Source of the DNA: Phycisphaerae bacterium | GTDB taxonomy: Bacteria; Planctomycetota; Phycisphaerae; UBA1845 | NCBI GenBank assembly: GCA_020056715.1 | Contig: JAGVHG010000073.1 | Location: 4,754 to 68,753 of the forward strand | Direction of reading: 5' to 3' | Length of the DNA: 64,000 nt | Shown here: in pieces, positions 34,539 to 64,000 of the stretch | Position numbering within the stretch: position 1 is the first letter of the stretch | Layout: each line of letters starts with the position of its first letter | Program-made: the position numbers and the translations under genes | Notes under the pieces: model-generated | Databases searched by the model: none | What the model was told of the DNA's origin: nothing | What the model saw: the letters and a program-made list of their open reading frames with translations, nothing else

Positions 34539-35339
34539 CTATGGGCGCGCTTCGGTTCCCACTTTCTCTATAAGCCGGTCTATCTCTTCGAAAGCCCAAT
34601 GTTGAACTTGGAGCTCGCCAAATAGACTTACGACTCTCTTCCGTACATCGCTTAGACCCGGCGCGAATCTCGACACGACGACGAGTTGCATCGGAATTTC
34701 CAGCGACACGCTGTGTTTGTGCAAAAGGTGTCCATCGACGGCAAGCACTTCCGCACGCCTAATAGCTTGATCTTGAGAACCTGAGAATTCGCACGGTTTG
34801 ACCAAATTCAGCACGCCGTTCTTGTATGCATAAGGTATCGCCAGTTTCTTTCGTAACGTCGGCACCTCAACCATTCTATCAAACTCGATTCTTCGCTCAA
34901 AGGTGGGCTGGCGCAAGGCGCTGTCCAACTCCGGGAACGGGATCCTCGGAGAGCGCTGGTATACGGGACCTCCTACGAGATCGTTGAACAGAGTCTCTAG
35001 GTCCGCCTGCGGGTTCATGCTGCGCATTGGACGAAGGGGAGTCATTCGTATTTGGTTCGCGCGGGTTGCGATGAACTGTTCGACGTCGGCGATTGTTCGG
35101 AACGCGACTCGATCGACCTCGAACCGAGTTTGGAATGCGCGCTTAAACGCCTTGAGTCTTTCGGGATCAAAACTTGTGCGCCCGAAGAACTGCGCGACGC
35201 GCTTGTTCCTTCTCGCAACCTTCGCCTTGATGAAGTTCTTGTCCGGGCAATAGAGCAGCACACCTATGTTCGCTGCTTCGAGTTTCGAAGCGTCCGGGCA
35301 GAACTGGATCATACTATAGTACGCACGTTCGCCGGCCAT
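34539..35339 (-). CDS. DUF3037-like protein (unknown function)
   Basis: N-terminus MAGERAYYSMIQFCPDASKLEAANIGVLLYCPD matches my memory of the DUF3037 family signature (Y-x-x-(I/L)-x-(F/Y)-x-P-D..E-x-x-N-I-G-V). 266 aa. Locally low GC. Lies 24 bp downstream of the kinase gene. Confidence 0.65.
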   Translation of the reverse strand: MAGERAYYSMIQFCPDASKLEAANIGVLLYCPDKNFIKAKVARRNKRVAQFFGRTSFDPERLKAFKRAFQTRFEVDRVAFRTIADVEQFIATRANQIRMTPLRPMRSMNPQADLETLFNDLVGGPVYQRSPRIPFPELDSALRQPTFERRIEFDRMVEVPTLRKKLAIPYAYKNGVLNLVKPCEFSGSQDQAIRRAEVLAVDGHLLHKHSVSLEIPMQLVVVSRFAPGLSDVRKRVVSLFGELQVQHWAFEEIDRLIEKVGTEARP

Positions 35340-35363
35340 AATCGTTGCTCCCCCAATCGCAGA

Positions 35364-36209
35364 TCAAAGCCAAAGCTTTCCTGTCTCACTCATTATTGCC
35401 TGTTCGATACTCTTCTCGATTGTATCGACAACATAACTTGCACGTCTCGACAACAGTTCTACGATCGCTTTCCTTACCTTAGTCGATACATTCCACTCTG
35501 TCGGTATTGTACCGACGAGCGACTCGCCGACGTGCTGGTCGAATTCGGCAAGCCGTTGAAGCCAAGGGCGAATCGAACTCCGTGTTACAAACGGCCTAAA
35601 CAACGGAAAGAGACCGTAAAGCCGGTCGTCCCGGACCGTGTGAATATGGGCTAGAGCCTCCGTAAGGTCTCTTCCCCATCCCAAGCACGCCGAATGATCG
35701 ATGGCCTTCAAAACGGGCTGATCGGTCAAACCTTTTCCGACTGAAAGGAAGAGGTTGTCCGGACGCAGCTTCCAGCGCGTTCCGAGCGGTGGGTGGCGGT
35801 CGAGGTTTCGGAGCCACGTGTCAAGTACGACAATCCCCGGAATCATGCTTTCATGGTTGCTGGTCTGTTCTAGCTGCCCCGGAACGTTGCTCCAAGGTTC
35901 GCCTACTTCCCACCGAATCACGATGGCCGGACCCGGTTCTGCCATTCGTCCGTGTCCCAGCGGAATCTCATCGTCTGCGGTTACCCCGATGATTGCAATG
36001 TCAAAAGTCGCAAGACCGAGCCAGGCGGCGAGCTTCGTCCCGATCCATTCACAAGCCAATGCATGAGGTCCTTCCTTATTGCCCAACGCTTTGATTAGGG
36101 CTTGCCCCGCGTCGGTAACGATGATGGCGGGGCCCGTACTCGTGGGGATTGAACGGACCCATCGCTTGAACGTGGTTGGCTGCCACGCTTCCGATCCCGC
36201 GTTGAGCAA
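35364..36209 (-). CDS. HipA-like Ser/Thr kinase family protein (TTG start)
   Basis: ..GPAIIVTDAGQALIKALGN.., ..ALACEWIGTKLAAWLGL.., catalytic loop VLDTWLRNLDRH(x12)DNLFL, and Mg-site-like KAIDHSACLG. This layout resembles HipA-type kinases. Only a TTG start is available; the ATG at 36216 is out of frame. Confidence 0.65.
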   Translation of the reverse strand: MLNAGSEAWQPTTFKRWVRSIPTSTGPAIIVTDAGQALIKALGNKEGPHALACEWIGTKLAAWLGLATFDIAIIGVTADDEIPLGHGRMAEPGPAIVIRWEVGEPWSNVPGQLEQTSNHESMIPGIVVLDTWLRNLDRHPPLGTRWKLRPDNLFLSVGKGLTDQPVLKAIDHSACLGWGRDLTEALAHIHTVRDDRLYGLFPLFRPFVTRSSIRPWLQRLAEFDQHVGESLVGTIPTEWNVSTKVRKAIVELLSRRASYVVDTIEKSIEQAIMSETGKLWL

Positions 36210-46814: not shown

Positions 46815-47522
46815 GGTAAGTCTCCTTTTTGTCTAAAAGCGCGCACTCCCCGCGGTGCGAGCGACATCCGCTCGCACGAAACGCGGATCGTGCGACTCCG
46901 TTGAGCTAACGATCAGATCGAACCGACGGCGACGGGGCTCCGTGGTTCTTTCCCCATGACCGAACACCAACGTCCCCTCTGTCGGCGTTCGAGGATCGTT
47001 GCGCCGGAGCCAATAGGCGGCACATCAAGCAACCCTCCTTGGTTTGAATTCGATGGGCCTAACCGGCTGAATCGACTCTATTAGTTCTATGGCGAATTGA
47101 GGGCTGGTATTCACGCGCAAAATTGGAAAAAAGCGAAATTTTATTGCACGGAGTGCTATTTTCGAGCGCGACGCCCTTCCAACCCACCGGAAGATTCTTC
47201 GCTGCGCTCAGAATGACACCCCTGGGCATTCGAAGGGGGGGACGTTTAGGCGCCCGGCTCTATTCCGATTCGATGGTGGCCGGGGGTTTGGAAGAAAGGT
47301 CGTAGACGACGCGGTTTACGCCCCTCAATTCATTGATGATCCGGTTTGGGATGCGATCGGCCTTGTATCCGGTTTCTGTTCGCCGAGTCCGAGTTTTGGG
47401 CTACAGCTCCCTTCAGATTCCACCTCGCGAAGGACACCCTGGCCTGCCCTGGAGGTTCCGACCATCGCGGCCCGCAAAGGAATCGCACCTCCAACACGCA
47501 TCACATGCCTGGCAAACAAAGA

Positions 47523-49896: not shown

Positions 49897-52257
49897 ATGT
49901 TTAGACTGACCGCAAAGAATGGGAGTCGCCGTCGGCAACTGCGCGAACAGCGGGTGAAGCCGGGTGGATCGCGGTGGAGCCGTTTATTTCGTCGCATAGT
50001 GAATTGGCCGACAACGGTCGGAGCCGTTTTCATCGTCGCGGCATCGGCCGTCGCCCTGTGGGGTGAAGGCTCTCTGGACTATGTCGTCGGGCAGCGCATC
50101 GAGCAACCCATCTACACCAAGGTCCGGTTTCAAGTTCCGGACATTAAACAGACCACGAATGACCGCAAGGCGGCGCGGGCGAAGACCTCCAGCTTCTACG
50201 CGATGAACGACCCCGCATTGACTTTTGGTCGGATTCGCGCCGACCTAATGCGGCTCTATCAAGTCGCCGCCGACGCGGACACGTTCGAGACCTACTCCAC
50301 GGCGATGGAGGGGTTGAAGTGGCCCGCCGAGCGGGCGGCATACGATCGCCTACGGGCGTTGGTGGACATGCCCGACGACTCGGGACGGGTGCAGTTCCAG
50401 GAATGGATCGACAAACTCCCCCTGGAAAGTCAGTACGTCGTCCGCGGTCTCTCCAAGGAACCCCGCGATCCACCTAGTGCGACGGATTTTATTCTTCTGG
50501 AGACCCGCGGCACGGATAACGAAATCAGCGCGTCGCAGGTCCCCCATTCCGAGCTTGTGCTTCAAGGTAATGACAAGGCCCTGCAGGGCAGTGCGGGCAT
50601 CGTTGCGAGGAGAGTACCGGCCTACGAGCTGCGCCCCGTCGTCGAGGCGATGATCGTATCCGTTTTCCGCGAGCAGCCGACCATCGTCTATGCCCAAGAG
50701 CGGACCGTGGATGCTTTGCAAAAAGCGGAAGAGGCGACGCCCGAGGCGTTGACGACCTATGAGAAAAACCAACCGTATATCAATCCGGGAGAGTTGGGAG
50801 ACGGTGGTTACACCCTGCTGAAGGCGCATCATGCGGCCTATGAAGCGTTCCTTTCCCAGGACACCGCCGAGGCCGCCGTCCTGCGACTGGAACGGTGGCT
50901 GCAGCGCGGCGGTCTGGTCGCGCTGGTCGTCGTCCTATCGGGGGGATTGCTGGTCTATTCACGACTCTATCAACCCTCGATGTTTGAAGTCCGGGCGAAG
51001 ACCCTTGCGTTCGCCGCGGTCATGTTAGGAACGCTCGCGACGGCGCGCTTTCTGGCCATCAAGCTGCCTCATTTCCCGGAGTTGGTCTCCTCGCCGTGTC
51101 TGATTGCGGCGAGCGTCTTGTGCATCGCCTATCCGCGACGTTTCGCGATCGGGGCGATGTGCATCGTTACCGTGTTGGTCGCGACGATCGTACACAACCA
51201 TCTCGCGTTTTTGTTGATGTTGCTGACGGGCGTCGGAGCAACGGTCTATCAACTCGACGAGATCCGTACGCGGACTAAGTTGATCAAGGTGGGGCTGGCG
51301 ACGGCCGGAGCGATCATGCTGGCGTCGGCGGCGGGCGGCTTAATGGAGGGGCAAACGCCGGCATTCGTGTTCCAGCACGCCGTATGGGCTGGATCGTGCG
51401 CCCTGATGTCCGCGTTTGTGGTTTCCGGAGTTCTGCCGTTCATCGAGCGCATCTTCCGCATCGCCACATCACTTACCCTGCTGGAATGGAGAGACCCGAC
51501 CCGTCCGCTCTTACAGCTTTTGGCGCGAGAGGCGCCCGGGACTTACAACCACAGTCTGGTCTTGGGGACACTGGCCGAAGCGGCTTGTGAGCGGCTGGGG
51601 GCCAACGGGCTGCTCGCCCAAGTCGGCGCCCTCTATCACGACGTCGGCAAAATCCATCGGGCCGAGTACTTCATGGAAAATCAGGAGGGGCGAATCAGCC
51701 GCCATGACAATCTCGCCCCGACGATGAGTCTGCTGATTATTCTGGGACACGTGAAGGACGGGTTGGAGCTGGCCAAGCAGTACAAGCTGCCGCCGGTCCT
51801 GCACCAGTTCATCGCCGAGCACCACGGCACGACGGTGGTACGTTACTTCCACCACGTCGCCGCCGAAAAACAACCGCATGTCGCCAGCGGGCGTCATGAC
51901 CGCGAGGTGTCGGAGGCGGATTTCCGCTACCCGGGGCCAAAGCCTCGTGCCAAGGAGGCGGCGGTGTTGATGCTCTGCGACGGCGTGGAGGGGGCCGTGC
52001 GGGCGCTTAGCGAGCCGACGGTCGGGCGTATCGAGAGCACCGTACACGAAACAGTGATGGACCGTCTCAACGACGGTCAGTTCGACGATTGCGACATTAC
52101 CCTGCGCGAGATTCACCAGGTCGAGGATTCTCTGGTCAAGACGCTGTGCGGCATCTACCATGGACGGGTCGCCTATCCCAAGGCCCGAAAACCCCGCGAG
52201 GGTGAACGCGACCAAGGCGGTAACGTGAACATGCCGGCAGCGAGGATTAGCGTCTGA
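49897..52257 (+). CDS. 7TM-receptor HD/HDIG phosphohydrolase (PgpH/YqfF-like)
   Basis: Extracellular N-domain, 7 TM helices, then the HD domain HSLVLGTLAEA..GALYHDVGK..GHVKDG..FIAEHHGT. Conserved position between phoH and ybeY. Confidence 0.9.
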   Translation: MFRLTAKNGSRRRQLREQRVKPGGSRWSRLFRRIVNWPTTVGAVFIVAASAVALWGEGSLDYVVGQRIEQPIYTKVRFQVPDIKQTTNDRKAARAKTSSFYAMNDPALTFGRIRADLMRLYQVAADADTFETYSTAMEGLKWPAERAAYDRLRALVDMPDDSGRVQFQEWIDKLPLESQYVVRGLSKEPRDPPSATDFILLETRGTDNEISASQVPHSELVLQGNDKALQGSAGIVARRVPAYELRPVVEAMIVSVFREQPTIVYAQERTVDALQKAEEATPEALTTYEKNQPYINPGELGDGGYTLLKAHHAAYEAFLSQDTAEAAVLRLERWLQRGGLVALVVVLSGGLLVYSRLYQPSMFEVRAKTLAFAAVMLGTLATARFLAIKLPHFPELVSSPCLIAASVLCIAYPRRFAIGAMCIVTVLVATIVHNHLAFLLMLLTGVGATVYQLDEIRTRTKLIKVGLATAGAIMLASAAGGLMEGQTPAFVFQHAVWAGSCALMSAFVVSGVLPFIERIFRIATSLTLLEWRDPTRPLLQLLAREAPGTYNHSLVLGTLAEAACERLGANGLLAQVGALYHDVGKIHRAEYFMENQEGRISRHDNLAPTMSLLIILGHVKDGLELAKQYKLPPVLHQFIAEHHGTTVVRYFHHVAAEKQPHVASGRHDREVSEADFRYPGPKPRAKEAAVLMLCDGVEGAVRALSEPTVGRIESTVHETVMDRLNDGQFDDCDITLREIHQVEDSLVKTLCGIYHGRVAYPKARKPREGERDQGGNVNMPAARISV

Positions 52258-52292
52258 CTCCAGCGGCCTGGGTCGCGGCAGCAGACCGTCGT

Positions 52293-52781
52293 ATGAAAAA
52301 CGCGCCTATCTACGACGTACGTATAGCACTGCGAAGCGGCGAAGTTCCGAAGGTCGAAGCCAAGGTGCGGAAGGCGATTCGTGCGGCGTTGCGCCGACAC
52401 GGGGTGGTCAGGGCGCGAATCAGCGTGGCCCTGGTGAATGACGCCGCTATGGCACGATTGAACCGGGACCACCTCGGGCACAATGGTCCCACGGACGTGC
52501 TCAGCTTCGACCTTCGCGACGAGGCGAGCGAGAAGAAAGCGATCGATGGGGAGATCGTGATGTCGGTGGACATGGCCATGAAACAGGCGCGCGAACGCGG
52601 ACACGCCGTGGAGGCCGAGCTTGCCTTGTACGCGGTGCACGGGACTTTGCACCTCTTGGGATACGACGACCGGCGCAAAGCCGACGCCGCGCGGATGCAC
52701 GCCATGGAGGATGAAGTTTTGTCTTCGATCGGATTCGGGACAGTGTACGCGAAATCGACGGATCAGAATGCTGAATTGTGA
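52293..52781 (+). CDS. ybeY: rRNA maturation endoribonuclease YbeY
   Basis: GPTDVLSF and the zinc motif HGTLHLLGYDD. 162 aa. Confidence 0.93.
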   Translation: MKNAPIYDVRIALRSGEVPKVEAKVRKAIRAALRRHGVVRARISVALVNDAAMARLNRDHLGHNGPTDVLSFDLRDEASEKKAIDGEIVMSVDMAMKQARERGHAVEAELALYAVHGTLHLLGYDDRRKADAARMHAMEDEVLSSIGFGTVYAKSTDQNAEL

Positions 52782-52847
52782 ATGGTGAATGCGGAAACGG
52801 TTATTTGTGGTATTTAGCATTCCGCATTCCGCATTCGTCATTCATTG
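52766..52847. terminator. inverted arrays of GAATGNN / CATTCNN heptads between ybeY and the CBS-domain gene
   Basis: gaatgct-gaattgt-gaatggt-gaatgcg, then a 23-nt loop, then cattccg-cattccg-cattcgt-cattcat. Perfect core pairing GAATGCGGAA (52787-52796) with TTCCGCATTC (52820-52829). Confidence 0.6.
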
Positions 52848-52859
52848 TGAGTTGACCAA

Positions 52860-54143
52860 GTGAACGACTGGGTGCTGTGGGTGGGGTTTGCGGGGCTGCT
52901 GGGCTTGACCTTGTTCTCCGTGCTGAACCTGTCCTTGCGGACGCCGTCGCGATCGCGCAATGCGGAGGAGTTCGATCGTCGAGGCCGGGGGCACCTTTTC
53001 GAAGGCTTCGTCGCTCGACGCCCGCAGTATCTCCTGGCGACTGCGGCGCTGCGCTCCGCGTCCGTGTTCGTCCTCTTCGTAACGGTGCTCTATCAATTCG
53101 AGTCGGGCGAAACGCGGAGCGGGTTCAATCGGATTATCGGCGCCTGCACGGTAGCGGGGACGCTGCTGTTGATCTTCGGCGTGGCGATTCCCTATGCTTG
53201 GGCCAAGTATTCGAGCGAAGGACTGGTGGTTTTCTTCTTGCCGTTGCTCGTAATGCTGCGGGTGGTGTTCTTGCCGGTAATCAAGTTTTTGGAGCTTTTC
53301 GATCCCGTCATTCGACGCCTTGCCGGCGTCCCGCTCCCCGACGCCAAATCCGCCGCCGATGAACTTGAGCAGGAAATCCTCGACGTGGTCAGCGAGGGAG
53401 AATTGCACGGGGCCGTCGACGAGGAAGAGAAGGAGATGATCGAGTCGGTCATCGAGCTGGGCGACACCCGCGTGGTGGAGATCATCACCCCGCGGACGGA
53501 GATCGTCGCTCTGCCCGTGGATGCCGATCTCGCCACCGTGCTGGAAGCGATCCGCAGCCAAGGCCATTCCCGCATCCCGGTGTACGAGGGGACCATCGAC
53601 ACCATCTTGGGTGTTTTGTACGCCAAGGACCTGCTCGGCCGCGCGGAGGACGCACCCTTTCAACTCAGCTCGCTCATGCGCAAGGCGTTGTTCATCCCGG
53701 AGTCGAAATTGGTGCGCGATCTTCTGCGGGAGCTTCAAAAGCAGAAGGTGCACATAGCCATCGTGTTGGACGAATACGGGGGCACCTCCGGCCTGGTGAC
53801 CATCGAGGACATCCTCGAAGAACTGGTCGGCGAAATCGGCGACGAATACGAGACGACCGCCCCGGCCACCTTCAAGCGAATCGACGAGACGACCTTCGAG
53901 GTGGACGCCGGGATGCGCATCTACGACCTCAACGACCAGCTCAACGTGATGCTGCCCGACGACCGCGACTACGAGACCCTCGGCGGTTTTGTGTTCAGTA
54001 CGATGGGGAAGATTCCCAAAGTCGGCGAACGCTGCCAGTTCAACAACATCGGGATACAAGTGTTGGCCGCGGAGCCGCAGCGCATCACACGCTTGCTGGT
54101 GAAGGTGGCGCCGACGGAAGAGCCTAAGGAAACCGCAACCTAA
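52860..54143 (+). CDS. CNNM/TlyC-family membrane protein (DUF21 + CBS pair + CorC_HlyC)
   Basis: N-terminal 4-TM DUF21, then VIELGDTRVVEIITPRTEIVAL..HSRIPVY..ILGVLYAKDLL (CBS pair), then C-terminal ETLGGFVFSTMGKIPKVGE (CorC_HlyC). The 536-aa antisense ORF is a shadow frame. Confidence 0.93.
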   Translation: MNDWVLWVGFAGLLGLTLFSVLNLSLRTPSRSRNAEEFDRRGRGHLFEGFVARRPQYLLATAALRSASVFVLFVTVLYQFESGETRSGFNRIIGACTVAGTLLLIFGVAIPYAWAKYSSEGLVVFFLPLLVMLRVVFLPVIKFLELFDPVIRRLAGVPLPDAKSAADELEQEILDVVSEGELHGAVDEEEKEMIESVIELGDTRVVEIITPRTEIVALPVDADLATVLEAIRSQGHSRIPVYEGTIDTILGVLYAKDLLGRAEDAPFQLSSLMRKALFIPESKLVRDLLRELQKQKVHIAIVLDEYGGTSGLVTIEDILEELVGEIGDEYETTAPATFKRIDETTFEVDAGMRIYDLNDQLNVMLPDDRDYETLGGFVFSTMGKIPKVGERCQFNNIGIQVLAAEPQRITRLLVKVAPTEEPKETAT

Positions 54144-54300
54144 GCGCCGGGGTTGGAGCCAAAACGAGTCGGGAGCGCGATCGAGCGGCGACAAGCGGGA
54201 GAAGCGTTCTTGCTTTGGTTTGTGAATCATGGCTGTCAAATGGCTTCGTTTTGCGAGTACAGTTTTTTTGCGAGTGTCAGCATATGGCACCCAACAAGAC

Positions 54301-54360
54301 AATTGACGAATGTCGATTGTCGAATGGAGGGAATTGCCAATTTCCAATTGCCGATTGATC
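54301..54360. repeat. eight consecutive AT-rich heptads ((g/c)aatNNc type)
   Basis: aattgac-gaatgtc-gattgtc-gaatgga ... gaattgc-caatttc-caattgc-cgattga. Related to the 7307-7393 arrays. Confidence 0.5.
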
Positions 54361-54685
54361 TGAGCCGCGCGGCGCGAGCCCGCGGACCCTTGATCCGAAC
54401 CGCTACCGCAGGCACTTGTTTGGGTTTCGGTGGCTTTCCGCCTGATGCTCATTTTCCGTAACCCCTTTGTCTACCGCGATTTATGGATTTCGCGGTGGGT
54501 TCGTTTCGTACGGGCGCTTTCGCTAGGCATTAAGGCAATAATGCACGAAGGGGAGAAAACGCAGAAACACAGAAACCATGAGTACTGACTCCTACTGGCG
54601 CGCGGAGCGGGTGTGGCTTTCATCTACACCTATAACTTGACGGGTGATCGGTAGGGACCGTGTGATCGGGCGATCACCGGGCGGC

Positions 54686-57849: not shown

Positions 57850-59655
57850 CTACGGTCTCGGTTTTAGGGCATCGCTACGGATGACGCCTTTACCTTGTTG
57901 AATGACGTAGAGCGACCCTGCGGCCAAGTTGGGGAATTCCGCTTGCGAACCATCAGGCCAGCGGATCGTCAGGCGAGTGATGCTCGTTGCCTGGCCCAAT
58001 CCGAAGGTTGGGGTCAACTCGGACTGACTCAGATACGAGCCGCCCGTCGTGACGTAGCGCGTTTGTGTCACGCTCCCTATTTCAGCGCGAAGCACTGCTC
58101 CAAGGGCGTTGGTATTCTTGCCCGATCCGATCAAGCGCACGCGGACTACGTTTGCGTCTTTCGAGCGCTCGTTGCGCAGCAATTTTGGCGGACCGCCGTT
58201 GGCCGTTAGCAGAACGTCGAGATCGCCATCGCCGTCGATATCGGCCGTGGCGACGGAACGTCCCACGATCTTGGACTCAAACGGCGCTCCGGCGCGATCC
58301 GTGACCTCGACGAATTGTCCGCTACGGTTGTTGAGAAACAGTTGCGGCCTCTGAGCGAACTCCCACGTCTTCCGAATGTGCTCGATCTCCGGCTCGATGT
58401 GCCCGTTGGCGAGGATCAAATCCTCGAAGCCGTCTAGGTTGATGTCCGCAAACAAGAGTCCGAAGGTCAGCGCGGCCTCGGTCGGCTTCGACAAGCGGCT
58501 CGCCCCGGCCCGATCGAGAAACGTCTCCATCCCCATTTGCGTGTAGAGTGAGACGGGTTCGCCGCTGAAGTTGCCGATGGCGATGGACTTCGACCCGCGG
58601 TTGTCGAGGTCGGCGACGCTCACGCCCATCCCCGCCCGAGCAAGCCCGTTTTCATCGTAGGCCACTCCCGCGCTGAGCGCCCGGTCGGTGAAGGTGCCGT
58701 CCTGATTGTTGATATACAAAAAGTTCGGCTGGGTGTCGTTGGTGATGACCAGATCGGGCCAACCGTCGTTGTTAAAGTCATCCGCAACGACGCCGAGGCT
58801 TTTCCCGTCGCGGTTGAAGACGCCGGCTTGTTTGGTCGCGTCGGTGAACTTCCCATCGCCCTCGTTGCGGAACAAAACGGAGGTCGATCCGTCGTAGGGC
58901 TGCGGCGTGGCGTAGGATTTCGTCTTCCCGTCCAGCGTCGCCCAAATGTCCGTCTGCGGCGTCCAGGCCACGTAGTTGCAGACGAACAGGTCCAGGTCCC
59001 CATCTCGATCGTGGTCGAGCCAAGTGGCACCTGTGGACCATTCCCAAGGCGATGCCGAGTCGTTGCACGCGCTAAATCCCACACCGGCCTCGTCGGTTAC
59101 GTCGACAAATTTCCCGCCGTCGTTTCGCAAGAGATGGTTCTTGCCGACGGCGGTGATGTATACGTCACTGTCACCGTCGCCGTCGTAGTCCGCGGCGGAA
59201 AAGCCCATTGCATAGCCCGAAACGATCGAGAGGTTCGACGCACCGGTGACGTCCTCGAACGTGCCGTTACGGCGATTGCGATAGAGCTTACTGGTCGGTG
59301 CCTGTCCCGGCTGTTCATGCCCGGGCCAATAACCGCTGTTCACCAGCAGGATGTCTGCCCAACCGTCGCCGTCATAATCAAAAAACCCACCACCGCCGCC
59401 CATCGTCTCCAGCATCCACTTCTCCCCGAACGCTCCGTTGACATGCGTGAAGCGGATACCCGCGGACGCGGTAATGTCGGTGAACGTCACGTCGGGTTCG
59501 TTCGATCCGCGCGGCGCGGTGTAGGTCGGCGGGGCGTCGGGTTGGATGTATTCGCTAACCGCTATCGGTGGTGGCGGTGATTCCTTCTTGCAGCCGCCGA
59601 TGCCGAAGAATGCGATGACGAGGCACGCTGCCAAGAACCCGCTTCGCCGTTTCAC
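57850..59655 (-). CDS. CRTAC1/ASPIC-UnbV family lipoprotein with FG-GAP (VCBS) repeats
   Basis: Lipobox FFGIGGC. Repeated D-x-D-G-D-G-x-x-D motifs (FFDYDGDGWADILL, DYDGDGDSDVYI, DHDRDGDLDLFV, FNNDGWPDLVI, DINLDGFEDLIL, DIDGDGDLDVLL). C-terminal UnbV_ASPIC-like GGSYLSQSEL..IRWPDGS. Confidence 0.88.
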   Translation of the reverse strand: MKRRSGFLAACLVIAFFGIGGCKKESPPPPIAVSEYIQPDAPPTYTAPRGSNEPDVTFTDITASAGIRFTHVNGAFGEKWMLETMGGGGGFFDYDGDGWADILLVNSGYWPGHEQPGQAPTSKLYRNRRNGTFEDVTGASNLSIVSGYAMGFSAADYDGDGDSDVYITAVGKNHLLRNDGGKFVDVTDEAGVGFSACNDSASPWEWSTGATWLDHDRDGDLDLFVCNYVAWTPQTDIWATLDGKTKSYATPQPYDGSTSVLFRNEGDGKFTDATKQAGVFNRDGKSLGVVADDFNNDGWPDLVITNDTQPNFLYINNQDGTFTDRALSAGVAYDENGLARAGMGVSVADLDNRGSKSIAIGNFSGEPVSLYTQMGMETFLDRAGASRLSKPTEAALTFGLLFADINLDGFEDLILANGHIEPEIEHIRKTWEFAQRPQLFLNNRSGQFVEVTDRAGAPFESKIVGRSVATADIDGDGDLDVLLTANGGPPKLLRNERSKDANVVRVRLIGSGKNTNALGAVLRAEIGSVTQTRYVTTGGSYLSQSELTPTFGLGQATSITRLTIRWPDGSQAEFPNLAAGSLYVIQQGKGVIRSDALKPRP

Positions 59656-62654
59656 TTGCCCTGCCCCCTGTGTGAACCGGTCTGATGGGACATCTCAGTG
59701 ATGCCTCCGGCGTGTTCATGCGACGCGGTCAAATCATGCACGTGGATGGGTTGCGATTCGAGGTTGTCATGCGGGTGGCTTAGTCGATAAGCCTGCGTGA
59801 CCTCGGCCTGGGATTCATCGATCTTGTAGCGAAGATACGCCGCCTCCGCCGACGCGGCCAACTCCGTGCGGCCCAGCGCACGAGCACTCAGCATGACGTG
59901 ATAGTGGGCCACACGGTCCTCCGGGTCGATTCGCAGAACCTGATCCATGGCTTCGATTGCTTCCTCAAACTTCCCGTCGAGGTAGTAGGTACGACCGAGG
60001 TTCCGCCACGTCGCGCGGTCGTCCGGGAACCGTTGCAGCACTCGTTTGTAGGCACTAGCGGCCTCGACGTAGCGACCGTCTTCCTGCAACAACACACCCC
60101 AGAACCACGCCGTTTGCGGGTCGTTGGAGACCAGCTCCTCGCATCGCAGAAGCTGCTCATACGCAACGGGCAGATTACCGTCGCTTAACGCCACGCGGGC
60201 CAGGTTCCGCGGCCCATCGATCCGCTTGGGGACGAGCCGCGTCACCTCGGCGAAAGCCGCTTCCGCGCCTTTGGTATCCGACTGCAAAAACAGGCCGATC
60301 CCATAATCGTTGAATCGCATCCAATCGGAAGCCAGCGCGCCCGCGTCAACCTCTCGCGGCGTAGGGGCCGACTCGCCCGGTTCAGCAATCGCCAACGTAA
60401 CCTCCGCCCGGCAAATTTCCGTGATCGGCAGGTCCGGGCACTTATCAAACCGTTTGAACCCTTGGCGATTGGTGTTGAACGCGAACTCGGTATACCCTCG
60501 ATCGAACTTTCGCCACATCAGCCGCGCGCGAACCTTCACGCTTTCGCCCGGAAGTTCCGGGACTTCGACGGCGTAATGCACTGTGTGGGCCGTGCCTGGG
60601 CCGATCACGCTGGTATACACGGCCGCATACATGTCCTGGGCGTTGCGCCGGTGGATCGCCTCACTGTGACGATCGACCACCAACGCACGGAAAAAGTGTG
60701 CCGCGGTATCGACGTATCCGTCCTCGCCGACGGACCCGCTCTGATAGAGCACCCGATCCTTGGCGTCGAGGACGGTGAACTCGATCCAACCTTCGTTCGA
60801 GTCGTTGGTCCCGCCGGGGAAAGTATGGCCCACGTCCTTGTTGCGGACCACGATGTCGAAGGTCACTTTCTCACCGGCCCGCAAGGGAGGCTGAGTCTTG
60901 TCCAAAGCAAGGACCGTCTCGCTCACACCCTCCGTTCGATCGCGCTGCAGCGCGAAAACGTCGATCCTTAGCCTGTTGTCGCGGAGGAAAGCCTCGATCC
61001 GCCGAATCGTATCCTCGTCTCCACGGATGTGCGGCAGCGCGGTGTTGATCGCGATAAAACGGTGCGATCTCACCATCCCGTTCTTGGCGGCGACATCCCC
61101 GAGCGGTGCCGGCTCCGGCGGCATGTGGCAGTCCTGGCATACTCGCTTATTGGGCGGAAGGTAGAACGTCCGCGAGGCATTCAGTGCCACGCCGCTGTCA
61201 TGCCAGTTGTCGTATTCATTTTGTCCACGGAACCAGCGGTAGTCGTTCACCGACTCCGGCAGGCTCACTTTATGGCAGGCGCTGCAGAATTCGCTGGTGC
61301 GGAAGACCGGCTGCAACATCTGCTTCTTATGCGCCTCCGGCTTGGCCTTGATCGCCGTGTCGTGCAACAACGCCCCCAGGCTCCCCGTTTCCGCTTGTGC
61401 AAACACATAGGGGTCTTCGTGCTCGTCGGCGATGTTGTAGGCCCCGTCGCCGGTGACGTTGTGAATTTTGTCAATCGCGTGGCACGCCAAGCAGGTAAGT
61501 CCCGCCTGGGCTTGAGGGGTGCGGCGGTCGATCTCCTCCGTCATCTGACCGGCCAACATCACCGACGGATCGTGACAGCCCGAACACCATTTGCTCTTGA
61601 TTTTCCCCGTCCGATCCTCCCATTGCGGGAAATGGGCGACGTGCTCGCTCACGCCCGTGGTCATCGACAAGGCCTTTTCGCGCATGTCGTTGATTGAGGC
61701 CTCGTAGAAGGGGTTGTTGAAGGAAGCGAAACGGTGGGCCGACTTCGACCATTGCTCGACGATATCCGCATGACACCGCTCGCAGGTTTCCGCGCCGATT
61801 TTCTCGCTCACCACGAACCCAATGTTGTCCAGGTCTGGGGCTAACTTTTCCGGGGATGACACGTCGCCGCGGGTGATGATCCGTTCCGGCAAATAGCCGC
61901 CCGTGGTCGTGGTCGTGGCGCTGGGAAAGAACGGGCTGGCCGGGGGCACGTACCCGACGGGCAGGTAAGGCCCATCAATGAACTCGGCCAGATCCCGCGC
62001 CTTCGAGCCGGGGCCGGTGTCGCTGCCCGTCGCCTGCGCCAGTTGTGCTTCAGGCGTCAAACCCGCGTCACGACTGCCCAACACGTGCATCCCGAAAACC
62101 ACCGCCGCCGCTCCGCCCACCAGTGTACCGAAGCGGACTAACGCGCGTGGTTGCGCGGGCACATAGGAGAACATGCGGTGTACGACGTACGCCGCCGGCA
62201 CAATCGCGGATGCGACGACATGCGTCCACCACACCCACCCGTGTTCGCGCGAGGCTGCGGCATACATGATGAAGGGACCGGTGATCGCCAAAATTAACCC
62301 GGTCGTGAGAAAGAAAAGGCCGCTGACCACCGTCCGCCGTCGATGCCGTCGCCATACCGTGGGCAGGTGCCACAGCGCGAACACCAGCAGCAGACTGACG
62401 ACAAGGAACCCCAATCCGGTGTGAGATAACACCATTACCTGAAAGAGCTTGGAAACGGTGTAGGCGCCCTCGGTGTAACGTTCCGCGGTGACGCCTGGTA
62501 AAACAGAAGAGGCCAGGCGATTCGCCAAGAGGTACAGTGTGTTCGCCAGCAAAAGCGCGGTCAATATGAGCGTGAACGTCAGCCAGCCGCGCTGGACGCC
62601 GGAAAGCAGGCTTTTGGCCTGACGCCGCTCTTCAGTAAGCAGTTCCTTGAGCAT
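59652..62654 (-). CDS. membrane-anchored pentahaem c-type cytochrome with C-terminal TPR repeats
   Basis: About 5 N-terminal TM helices. Five CxxCH motifs: CERCH, CSGCH, CLACH, CSACH, CQDCH. C-terminal TPR-like repeats (..AWFWGVLLQEDGRYVEAASAYKRVLQRFPDD..). The stop overlaps the ASPIC gene start by 4 nt. Confidence 0.85.
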   Translation of the reverse strand: MLKELLTEERRQAKSLLSGVQRGWLTFTLILTALLLANTLYLLANRLASSVLPGVTAERYTEGAYTVSKLFQVMVLSHTGLGFLVVSLLLVFALWHLPTVWRRHRRRTVVSGLFFLTTGLILAITGPFIMYAAASREHGWVWWTHVVASAIVPAAYVVHRMFSYVPAQPRALVRFGTLVGGAAAVVFGMHVLGSRDAGLTPEAQLAQATGSDTGPGSKARDLAEFIDGPYLPVGYVPPASPFFPSATTTTTGGYLPERIITRGDVSSPEKLAPDLDNIGFVVSEKIGAETCERCHADIVEQWSKSAHRFASFNNPFYEASINDMREKALSMTTGVSEHVAHFPQWEDRTGKIKSKWCSGCHDPSVMLAGQMTEEIDRRTPQAQAGLTCLACHAIDKIHNVTGDGAYNIADEHEDPYVFAQAETGSLGALLHDTAIKAKPEAHKKQMLQPVFRTSEFCSACHKVSLPESVNDYRWFRGQNEYDNWHDSGVALNASRTFYLPPNKRVCQDCHMPPEPAPLGDVAAKNGMVRSHRFIAINTALPHIRGDEDTIRRIEAFLRDNRLRIDVFALQRDRTEGVSETVLALDKTQPPLRAGEKVTFDIVVRNKDVGHTFPGGTNDSNEGWIEFTVLDAKDRVLYQSGSVGEDGYVDTAAHFFRALVVDRHSEAIHRRNAQDMYAAVYTSVIGPGTAHTVHYAVEVPELPGESVKVRARLMWRKFDRGYTEFAFNTNRQGFKRFDKCPDLPITEICRAEVTLAIAEPGESAPTPREVDAGALASDWMRFNDYGIGLFLQSDTKGAEAAFAEVTRLVPKRIDGPRNLARVALSDGNLPVAYEQLLRCEELVSNDPQTAWFWGVLLQEDGRYVEAASAYKRVLQRFPDDRATWRNLGRTYYLDGKFEEAIEAMDQVLRIDPEDRVAHYHVMLSARALGRTELAASAEAAYLRYKIDESQAEVTQAYRLSHPHDNLESQPIHVHDLTASHEHAGGITEMSHQTGSHRGQGK

Positions 62655-62946
62655 CGGTCCAATATCCCCCTATCTCGCCGCCCTGGAATGGCGCAACATC
62701 CCCCCAGGCTGCTTACGCAAACACAATATATCCGGCGGTACCTTCCGCCGGAACGTCTAGATCCTTAACTGTGTTACCCGGCCCTTTATTCTACCAGTCT
62801 ACCAGCTAATCGGCGGGTCGGTCAAGACCTGAGAAGCACCAATCGGCAAGGGGGAGTGTTACACGCCCAACCATCCCTACTATATTGGCATAGGAATATA
62901 GGTTAGAGTATTCTTCGAAGATGATCTCCAAAGAGCAGAAAGGGCG

Positions 62947-63516
62947 ATGTTCACAATGAACCGAGGTTTCTCAGTATTTCTATTCGTAGTCATGGGTTCA
63001 CTGATTGGCTGCAGCTTAATCCCCAACAATCCCGGGTCTGCAGAGATACCTAAACCAAGCGATGACGCATTGCCGGATTTTTCTCTGGTCGATGTCAATG
63101 CAAACTCCGCGCGCTACCAGGAGACCGTCTCGCCCCGCGATTATCTGGGACTAATCTCCGCCTGGTACTTCGGCCACTCGACGTGAGGTTACTGCAGAAG
63201 CCAGTTTGGCTTCCTCAACCAAATGCAGACCGAGATCGATTCACAAGAGACCTTGCGTCCGATTCAGATTATGGGGATCAACGGCATAGGGTTGGAGTCC
63301 GACAACGACGCCATGACGGCCGATCGGGTTCGGTCATGGCTCCAGCCGGCAGCCGACGAAGACGTTTGGACGTCGTGGTTGGTCGTGTATCGGGACGTGG
63401 TGATCCTCGGACCCGGTAATGAGCATCTGGGCACCTACAACCTGACGGAGCACGACTTGGCCGATCCGGCGAACTACGCGGCGCTGATGAATCAACTGCT
63501 CGAAGCGGCCCGTTAG
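62947..63516 (+). CDS. thioredoxin-fold (TlpA/redoxin-like) lipoprotein with in-frame TGA at 63184-63186: candidate selenoprotein (U-G-Y-C), otherwise a pseudogene
   Basis: Track ORFs 62947..63186 and 63223..63516 are in the same frame and are separated only by the TGA plus 12 sense codons. Read-through gives ..PDFSLVDVNANS..GLISAWYFGHST-U-GYCRSQFGFLNQMQ.., with the TGA at the first Cys position of CxxC. Lipobox LIGC at the N-terminus. Confidence 0.55.
63197..63213 (+). promoter_or_regulatory. candidate bacterial SECIS hairpin
   Basis: GAAGCCA-GUU-UGGCUUC, a 7-bp stem starting 10 nt after the UGA, with G and U in the apical loop. Confidence 0.4.
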
Positions 63517-63565
63517 CCGAATCCGCCGGTCGGTCCGCCGTAGGTCCGCCGAAGACGGATTCGGC
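63516..63565 (+). terminator. 10-bp stem hairpin overlapping the stop of the thioredoxin-like gene
   Basis: GCCGAATCCG (63516-63525) pairs with CGGATTCGGC (63556-63565). The large 30-nt loop contains GGTCCGCCG twice. Confidence 0.4.
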
Positions 63566-64000
63566 GAGGGTCAGCCAAGACGCGCCTCAGTTGTGGTTCT
63601 CCGGTTTCTGCTCGCTCGCTCCGCGAACGCCTTCCGCCGGAACGCCCGGATCCCTCTGAATTACCGAACCTCTATTCTTCCCCCTCACCGGCGGGTGGAT
63701 CAAGACCGATCATTGGAACGCCGACCGCGCTTTCACGCATTTCTGCCTCCAATGCGGCACCCACGCGGATGGTTCGTGCGTCCTGATCGGCGGCGACGCC
63801 GACTGCCTTTTCCTTCGGGATGGTGCCTCTTCGGAAAAGCGTCGCTGCCGAGGCGTAGGAAGTAAAAGGGTCGATTTAGGCGGCTAACGCGGCCCCGACG
63901 CGTTCCGAACCAAGGTGCTCTACGGTTCTGCGGTGAACTGAGCACGCGGCAAACGGGGCCGCACAGCGACAAGCCAACCCGCGGACCGCGGGACACAGCT

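Follow-up and report, generated by a model that had tools for sequence, protein, structure and literature searches.

In the UxxC families of bacterial selenoproteins, U stands for selenocysteine (Sec). A 2026 review tabulates several that resemble the subject of this text: the thiol:disulfide oxidoreductases similar to peroxiredoxin (Prx-like), the thiol-disulfide isomerase-like proteins and the redoxin family (PMC13188914). Absent from that table is the TUGYCR family, which the NCBI curators catalogue as NCBIfam NF053656 under the full name 'TUGYCR motif thioredoxin fold (seleno)protein'. A member of it is encoded in the DNA analysed here, a stretch of 64,000 nucleotides from a Phycisphaerae bacterium (contig JAGVHG010000073.1), henceforth called the window. 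We read its positions 62947-63516 as one gene for an extracytoplasmic lipoprotein of about 19 kDa, in which UGA 63184-63186 is decoded as Sec, and we put the probability of this reading at about 0.88. The gene belongs to a family that is already on record as a selenoprotein and, since NF053656 is named for exactly the TUGYCR motif and flagged accordingly, it is not novel; our results overturn no current knowledge. What the present analysis adds is covariation evidence for a selenocysteine insertion sequence (SECIS), a Prx-like arginine and a set of domain variants.

The family assignment was made with the read-through protein, in which Cys had been substituted at the TGA. It matched NF053656.1 (redoxin_TUGYCR) with E = 7.4e-64 and 214.1 bits, the curated cut-off being 100, and residues 43-187 cover positions 2-146 of the 146 in the profile, hence both sides of the TGA. 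T-U-G-Y-C-R is identical, the TGA stands at U, and the end-to-end match at twice the cut-off disclosed no difference from the family. Pfam yielded nothing for either half alone, nor did the whole protein reach the gathering score of a Redoxin, AhpC-TSA or Thioredoxin-type family; for AhpC-TSA it scored 12.4 bits versus 26 (E = 0.15).

Two other groups invite comparison. With the TlpA/ResA/CcmG(DsbE)/Etrx oxidoreductases the window protein has in common the fold, including an N-terminal beta-hairpin extension, and the position of the active site. Like the window protein, as predicted, they are anchored to membrane or lipid outside the cytoplasm, and Etrx2 is a lipoprotein, too. In contrast to them, the window protein has Sec in place of the first Cys, the identity is only 13-21%, and TUGYCR genes are not consistently accompanied by ccdA or by genes for cytochrome-c maturation. 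The Prx-like thiol:disulfide oxidoreductase selenoproteins (PMC1088965; PMC13188914, Table 1) are, judged by their description, similarly distant from Prx and similarly thioredoxin-like with a UxxC motif. They are, however, listed under PF00578, on which the window protein obtains just the 12.4 bits mentioned.

The first-pass annotation of the window had noticed two open reading frames (ORFs) in one frame, separated by a single TGA and 12 sense codons, and the sequence bears this out. On the plus strand, ORF 62947..63186 (79 aa) closes with TGA 63184-63186; the frame stays open through 12 sense codons to ATG 63223, from where it is shared with ORF 63223..63516, and ends at TAG 63514-63516. The read-through product has 189 residues, MFTMNRGFSVFLFVVMGSLIGC...AWYFGHST*GYCRSQFGFLNQMQ...LLEAAR. 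The context of the recoding site is ...LISAWYFGHST-[TGA]-GYCRSQFGFLNQMQ..., with the signature ...HST-[TGA]-GYCR..., in the protein AWYFGHST-U-GYCRSQF. The features of the locus are:

62947..63516, plus strand: entire coding sequence of the selenoprotein, with 188 sense codons, a single UGA (Sec) and the TAG stop; based on the frame, NF053656 and the ratio of nonsynonymous to synonymous substitution rates (dN/dS)
62947..63012, plus strand: signal peptide with lipobox MFTMNRGFSVFLFVVMGSLIG-C, predicted from the sequence; Cys22 (63010-63012) is the predicted lipidated residue
63073..63507, plus strand: thioredoxin-fold domain (redoxin_TUGYCR), residues 43-187; based on the profile match, an AlphaFold2 (AF2) model of a homologue and Foldseek
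63184..63186, plus strand: UGA read as Sec, first position of U-G-Y-C; based on conservation, Cys homologues and alignment with WCGPC/WCPTC
63193..63195, plus strand: TGC, Cys at +3 from Sec, invariant and aligned with the second Cys of CxxC; predicted resolving residue (selenylsulfide), a role that is inferred
63197..63213, plus strand: SECIS-like hairpin within the coding sequence, stem 63197-63203 with 63207-63213, loop GUU 63204-63206
62858..62914, plus strand: two overlapping sigma-70-like promoter candidates 5' of the start codon, by consensus match alone (9/12 each)

The same annotation had proposed a thioredoxin-fold lipoprotein with the TGA at the first Cys of a CxxC motif and a SECIS-type hairpin 10 nt further on. 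Each of these points has held: the fold in the family match, the homologue model and Foldseek; the position of the TGA in the alignment with Cys-type homologues and DsbE/CcmG; the lipoprotein nature, still as a prediction, in the N-terminal LIGC; and the hairpin in its conservation, its covariation and its occurrence with TGA rather than TGT. On inspection, LIGC fits the lipobox pattern [LVI][ASTVI][GAS]-C. Database homologues display a like hydrophobic stretch followed by [GAS]-C, and a crude lipobox pattern was found in 66 of the 101 relatives with enough upstream sequence.

An in-frame TGA by itself means little. The window has a GC content of 60%, and a TGA links two open stretches of 60 or more codons in the same frame in 60 cases, giving a list of pairs that consists mostly of spurious GC-rich open frames. 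Two adjacent in-frame pairs that were checked, 52173-54452 and 34539-36209 (both minus strand), had no domain across the junction. Given these 60 pairs and a local fold with z = -1.84 (see below), the split ORF plus hairpin is not beyond chance, and the significance of the recoding call derives from homology and comparative data, which we judge decisive. A global reassignment of TGA could be discarded, because TGA ends 11 of the 19 well-supported genes of the window and is the commonest stop there.

A search of 5.8 billion proteins revealed 43 relatives. In more than 15 of them, only the N-terminal part is present and the last residues are precisely ...AWYFGHST, with HAT or SAT as variants of HST; three others are C-terminal halves. 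Two full-length proteins from Joint Genome Institute (JGI) metagenomes, P0001 and P0002, show Trp at the Sec position (HATWGYC); to judge from the sequences, this is most likely an annotation artefact, the in-frame TGA having been translated under code 4. Three of the 43 carry Cys at the site (HADCQIC, RSSCGYC, AADCSFC). Scanning a genome collection with the family alignment, by a pattern that required Cys or Trp at the Sec position, led to three Cys-type loci. The Cys codon is TGT in P0003, P0010 and P0014 and in loci L005-L007. The same split gene as in the window is present in the complete Phycisphaerales metagenome-assembled genomes (MAGs) CP070744.1 and CP070827.1, and TGA also occupies this codon in a Planctomycetota MAG.

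Metagenomes were scanned for W-Y-F-G-x3-TGA-G-Y-C, a pattern that fixes the TGA and imposes only G-Y-C downstream of it. At least 120 contigs matched this strict pattern. The family is widespread in soil, sediment, freshwater and marine metagenomes, and its centre seems to lie in Planctomycetota and Phycisphaerae. Of the 120 matches listed, 119 continue with a conserved protein, the family sequence being maintained over about 105-115 residues after the TGA with the blocks GVN..G.ESGN, GR.LPWLQD, W.V.YRDVVILD and YNLT.HDL. The remaining match (L065) is a chance one that lacks the conserved downstream protein. The window retains all invariant and nearly invariant residues of a 37-sequence family alignment, in which the Cys at +3 from Sec is invariant. 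Gene callers deposit two 'hypothetical proteins' at such loci in GenBank MAGs and turn the TGA into Trp under code 4 in JGI data; the locus should be annotated as a single selenoprotein gene.

The hairpin GAAGCCA-GUU-UGGCUUC at 63197-63213 begins 10 nt after the A of the UGA (+13 to +29), has seven Watson-Crick pairs with G as the first base of the loop, and folds with -8.3 kcal/mol when taken alone. Within 62 nt of local sequence the fold is weak (z = -1.84; 11 of 200 shuffles fold as well). Its credentials come from comparison. In 110 distinct sequences, aligned from the UGA without gaps, the seven pairs are formed in 90.2% of the cells against 73.6% in column shuffles, and none of 500 shuffles reached the observed value. 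Cells that are changed on both sides of the stem number 114, with 33 expected, and sliding the 3' partner by 1-3 columns lowers the pairing to 27-47%. Pair 15-29, for instance, is U-A in 56 sequences, A-U in 25, G-U in 15, C-G in 5 and G-C in 3, while the apical loop is GUU in 107 of 111 sequences.

As the stem sits on conserved codons (R/x-S-Q-F-G-F/Y in the family, R-S-Q-F-G-F in the window), synonymous codons were resampled with each protein held fixed. This predicted 3.67 of the seven pairs, versus 6.32 observed; the highest mean in 200 resamples was 4.01, and six or more pairs occurred in 6% of the resampled but in 89% of the real sequences. In the three Cys-type loci with TGT (...HSTCGYCRSQFVVL), no more than 4-5 pairs are formed; these are not contiguous, and their number does not rise above background. 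Because of the covariation, the excess over codon resampling and the loss in the Cys forms, we conclude that the hairpin is selected for and accompanies TGA, not TGT. Its loop G and its spacing, with 17 nt between loop and UGA, fit the bacterial SECIS consensus used in PMC1088965. Compared with the E. coli fdhF paradigm, this is a very compact element, its stem having 7 bp and its GUU loop 3 nt, or 5 nt where the closing A-U is replaced by A-C.

What can be said about the fold is derived from the AF2 model of P0001, which is 55% identical to the window protein. Its mean pLDDT (predicted local distance difference test) is 77, with most of the core at 85-97, and a strand at 76-81 (SAWYFG) is followed by the TGA-encoded residue 86 and a helix at 88-104. 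The best Foldseek matches of this model in the PDB are all thioredoxin folds, with probability 1.0 and template-modelling (TM) scores up to 0.72; they comprise the TlpA/ResA/DsbE/Etrx group, including Etrx2, and peroxiredoxins. In sequence alignment, Sec coincides with the leading Cys of WCGPC in DsbE 3gl3, so that U-G-Y-C pairs with CGPC; for E. coli CcmG, hhalign (probability 92.7%) matches Sec to the leading Cys of WCPTC. By the model and these alignments, Sec takes the place of the first Cys in CxxC and sits at the N-terminal end of helix alpha-1 in a TlpA/ResA/DsbE-like fold.

From these elements a tentative mechanism can be sketched. As the ribosome nears the UGA, the mRNA 10 nt past it would fold into the 7-bp hairpin with the GUU apical loop. 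By analogy to fdhF of E. coli, SelB.GTP.Sec-tRNA(Sec) would bind this hairpin and compete with release factor 2 (RF2) to place Sec in the A site. The full-length protein would then be exported and, as the LIGC lipobox suggests, anchored to lipid via Cys22. In the modelled TlpA/ResA/DsbE-like thioredoxin fold, Sec80 would occupy the N-terminus of helix alpha-1 with Cys83 one turn further on. Sec80 is presumed to be the nucleophile that attacks a disulfide, a sulfenate or a peroxide of the substrate; Cys83 would resolve the product by forming a selenylsulfide within the molecule, to be reduced again by a reductant of the membrane. The role that we favour is that of a TlpA-type thiol:disulfide (selenol:disulfide) oxidoreductase that reduces disulfides or sulfenates.

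The combination of UxxC with an arginine raises the biochemical question whether the protein is a disulfide reductase or a peroxidase, and the main functional rival, once a selenoprotein is granted, is indeed a Prx- or glutathione peroxidase (GPx)-type peroxidase, in which peroxide would oxidize Sec to a selenenic acid to be resolved by Cys83. AhpE, Prx1 and Bcp4 are among the best structural matches, the sole weak Pfam match is AhpC-TSA, and a UxxC selenoprotein family has been described as 'Prx-like' (PMC1088965). Also, in an hhalign comparison with E. coli Bcp (118 columns, probability 35%), the nearly invariant R116 of YRDVVILD falls on the catalytic Arg of Prx (hRisfLID). This comparison, which also puts the second Cys of the motif on the peroxidatic Cys of Bcp, is weak, however, when held against the 92.7% for CcmG/DsbE. 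The nearly invariant Y-R-D-V, set on the Prx Arg by the same weak alignment (35%), appears to stand where proteins of the TlpA/ResA/CcmG type have the cis-Pro loop before strand beta-3. Further, the motif is UxxC instead of TxxC or TxxU: of the Prx motif PxxxT/SxxC, the window protein lacks the Pro and has U rather than T/S at the first position. A relationship to GPx, at which the S-x-U-G resemblance might hint, was dismissed, as GPx4 gave an hhalign probability of 0.5%. On balance, a peroxidase is the less probable of the two roles, with the alignment of Y-R-D-V-V-I-L-D and the Prx arginine speaking for such an activity.

Still more tentative is the idea that the TUGYCR proteins are hybrids with no characterised counterpart, i.e., exported, lipid-anchored selenoenzymes that unite a TlpA-type U-x-x-C and a Prx-type Arg (YRDVVILD) with a compact SECIS. 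We consider it doubtful. As part of it, the GUU-loop hairpin may, by analogy, be a lineage-specific minimal SelB-binding element. If true, Planctomycetota could possess a periplasmic selenol peroxidase or sulfenate reductase of this kind.

Several observations weigh against the Sec reading. The first-pass annotation had seen no sel genes in the window, and a search agrees: selA, selB, selD and tRNA-Sec are missing from these 64 kb. Nor was Sec machinery detected in 0.78 Mb of fetched DNA from relatives that carry the gene, or tRNA-Sec in the window plus 46 larger loci; tblastn of E. coli SelA, SelB and SelD against all fetched DNA returned one match, in L010, which is CysN/CysC. The Sec-decoding capacity of the source organism thus has to be inferred; several Planctomycetes do have complete Sec machinery (PMC4807772). 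Rfam, searched at permissive thresholds over 62600-64000, gave no SECIS or other family, apart from one chance microRNA match. The hairpin is shorter than the fdhF element of E. coli, and it lacks a bulged U. The structural model is that of the 55%-identical P0001 with Trp at the Sec position. We found no literature that mentions 'TUGYCR' or 'NF053656' and no experimental work on the family. Finally, a survey of the gene neighbourhood in 124 loci disclosed nothing that recurs in more than seven of them; guilt by association therefore offers no clue to the substrate.

The lack of Sec machinery in the window and the fetched loci, together with a hairpin that is small and without an Rfam SECIS match, might suggest that the UGA is read through with Trp, Cys or Arg by a near-cognate or suppressor tRNA, the hairpin merely stimulating this process. 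We regard this as very unlikely. The codon lies at a catalytic Cys position with Cys homologues, the classic signature of Sec/Cys exchange, and the family is curated as selenoprotein; loop G and spacing agree with the bacterial SECIS consensus; TGA serves as the commonest ordinary stop of the window; and Trp or Arg in place of the nucleophile would kill a redox site that is under strong constraint.

Decoding as Sec is also to be preferred to the two readings that deny translation through the TGA, to neither of which we can give any real credence. The first, left open by the first-pass annotation, is a recently inactivated pseudogene, in which a TGC or TGT Cys codon had turned into TGA and the downstream part was no longer translated. 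That no Sec machinery is visible in the window and that Cys-type homologues exist could be cited in its favour, yet among the matches listed all of the window's closest relatives have TGA at this codon. Moreover, when the window is compared with the six nearest relatives, among the matches listed, whose downstream half is complete, dN/dS 3' of the TGA amounts to 0.12-0.19 and does not exceed that on the 5' side, every invariant downstream residue is retained, and the covarying, TGA-specific hairpin is intact with 7/7 pairs. Purifying selection downstream and the retained family residues exclude a recent pseudogene and likewise a truncated product. The alignment of orthologues, which had been recommended as a check, thus found Cys or TGA at the codon and the downstream part conserved in frame. 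The second assumes two small genes, one for a lipoprotein of 79 residues that stops at the TGA, the other for a separate protein of 97 residues whose start codon is ATG 63223. In its favour, gene callers treat the locus in this way in GenBank MAGs. Against it, both parts are covered by a single thioredoxin fold and a single curated profile; the 12 codons that separate TGA from ATG (GYCRSQFGFLNQ) rank with the best conserved of the family and include the second redox Cys; no purine-rich ribosome-binding site is seen 5' of ATG 63223; and Cys-type homologues are continuous.

The family also comprises larger proteins. In a Planctomycetota MAG (DASUGR010000020.1, L128, 6001-7020; protein P0009 and relatives P0004-6, 8 and 11), a tandem two-domain variant occurs. 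Neither of the redox residues is left in its domain 1 (DALTAYAVDQFG); domain 2 reads GYYFGAAT-TGA-GYCSSQFGYL and has the same hairpin, and gene callers truncate the gene at the TGA. Other members (L055, L008/L054/L095, L021, L009, L075/L116) extend for 230-1090 residues past Sec, beyond the thioredoxin domain, and P0010 has a dockerin-like PF00404 domain there, which suggests, as far as sequence can tell, that the long members are fused to cell-surface modules. In the metagenome contig L010 (3581-6569, minus strand), a cysD-cysN/C operon for sulfate activation is found some 0.3 kb away from the TUGYCR gene, and the SelB-like match mentioned above is the CysN of this operon.

In the window, the selenoprotein gene is preceded by a divergent gene at 59652-62654 (minus strand) for a protein of 1000 residues that has several haem motifs (CXXCH), TPR repeats at its C-terminus and weak matches to MtrC/MtrF-like proteins and cytochrome c7. 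A 601-residue FG-GAP/ASPIC-UnbV protein is encoded at 57850-59655 (minus strand) with a 4-nt overlap. As partners, the two were rejected, the pair not being conserved beside other TUGYCR genes. A direct repeat of about 90 nt (62741-62830 and 63630-63708, plus strand) brackets the selenoprotein gene; its copies are about 74% identical and share CCTTCCGCCGGAACG and CGGCGGGTnGnTCAAGACC. The window has no third copy, and no copy was seen in 127 related loci; the repeat has no Rfam match and folds no better than shuffles.

Some further observations are remote from the gene. Two ORFs of 536 and 222 residues (52842-54452 and 52173-52841, minus strand) lie in one frame with a TGA and an immediate ATG between them; they have no Pfam or NCBIfam match and show no sign of recoding. 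At 47314-47434 (minus strand), Rfam gave an isolated match to domains D1-D4 of group II introns (RF02001, 44.6 bits); the site lies where a Ser/Thr kinase gene and cdsA are separated by 1.3 kb with few ORFs. Since neither a match to domain V/VI nor a reverse-transcriptase ORF was seen at this site, the match probably represents a remnant or an intron without an ORF. A HipA_2-like kinase (35364-36209, minus strand; 27.1 bits, E = 3e-6) and a DUF3037 protein (34539-35339, minus strand) are encoded adjacently and in frame, and from their sequences could form a toxin-antitoxin or defence-like pair.

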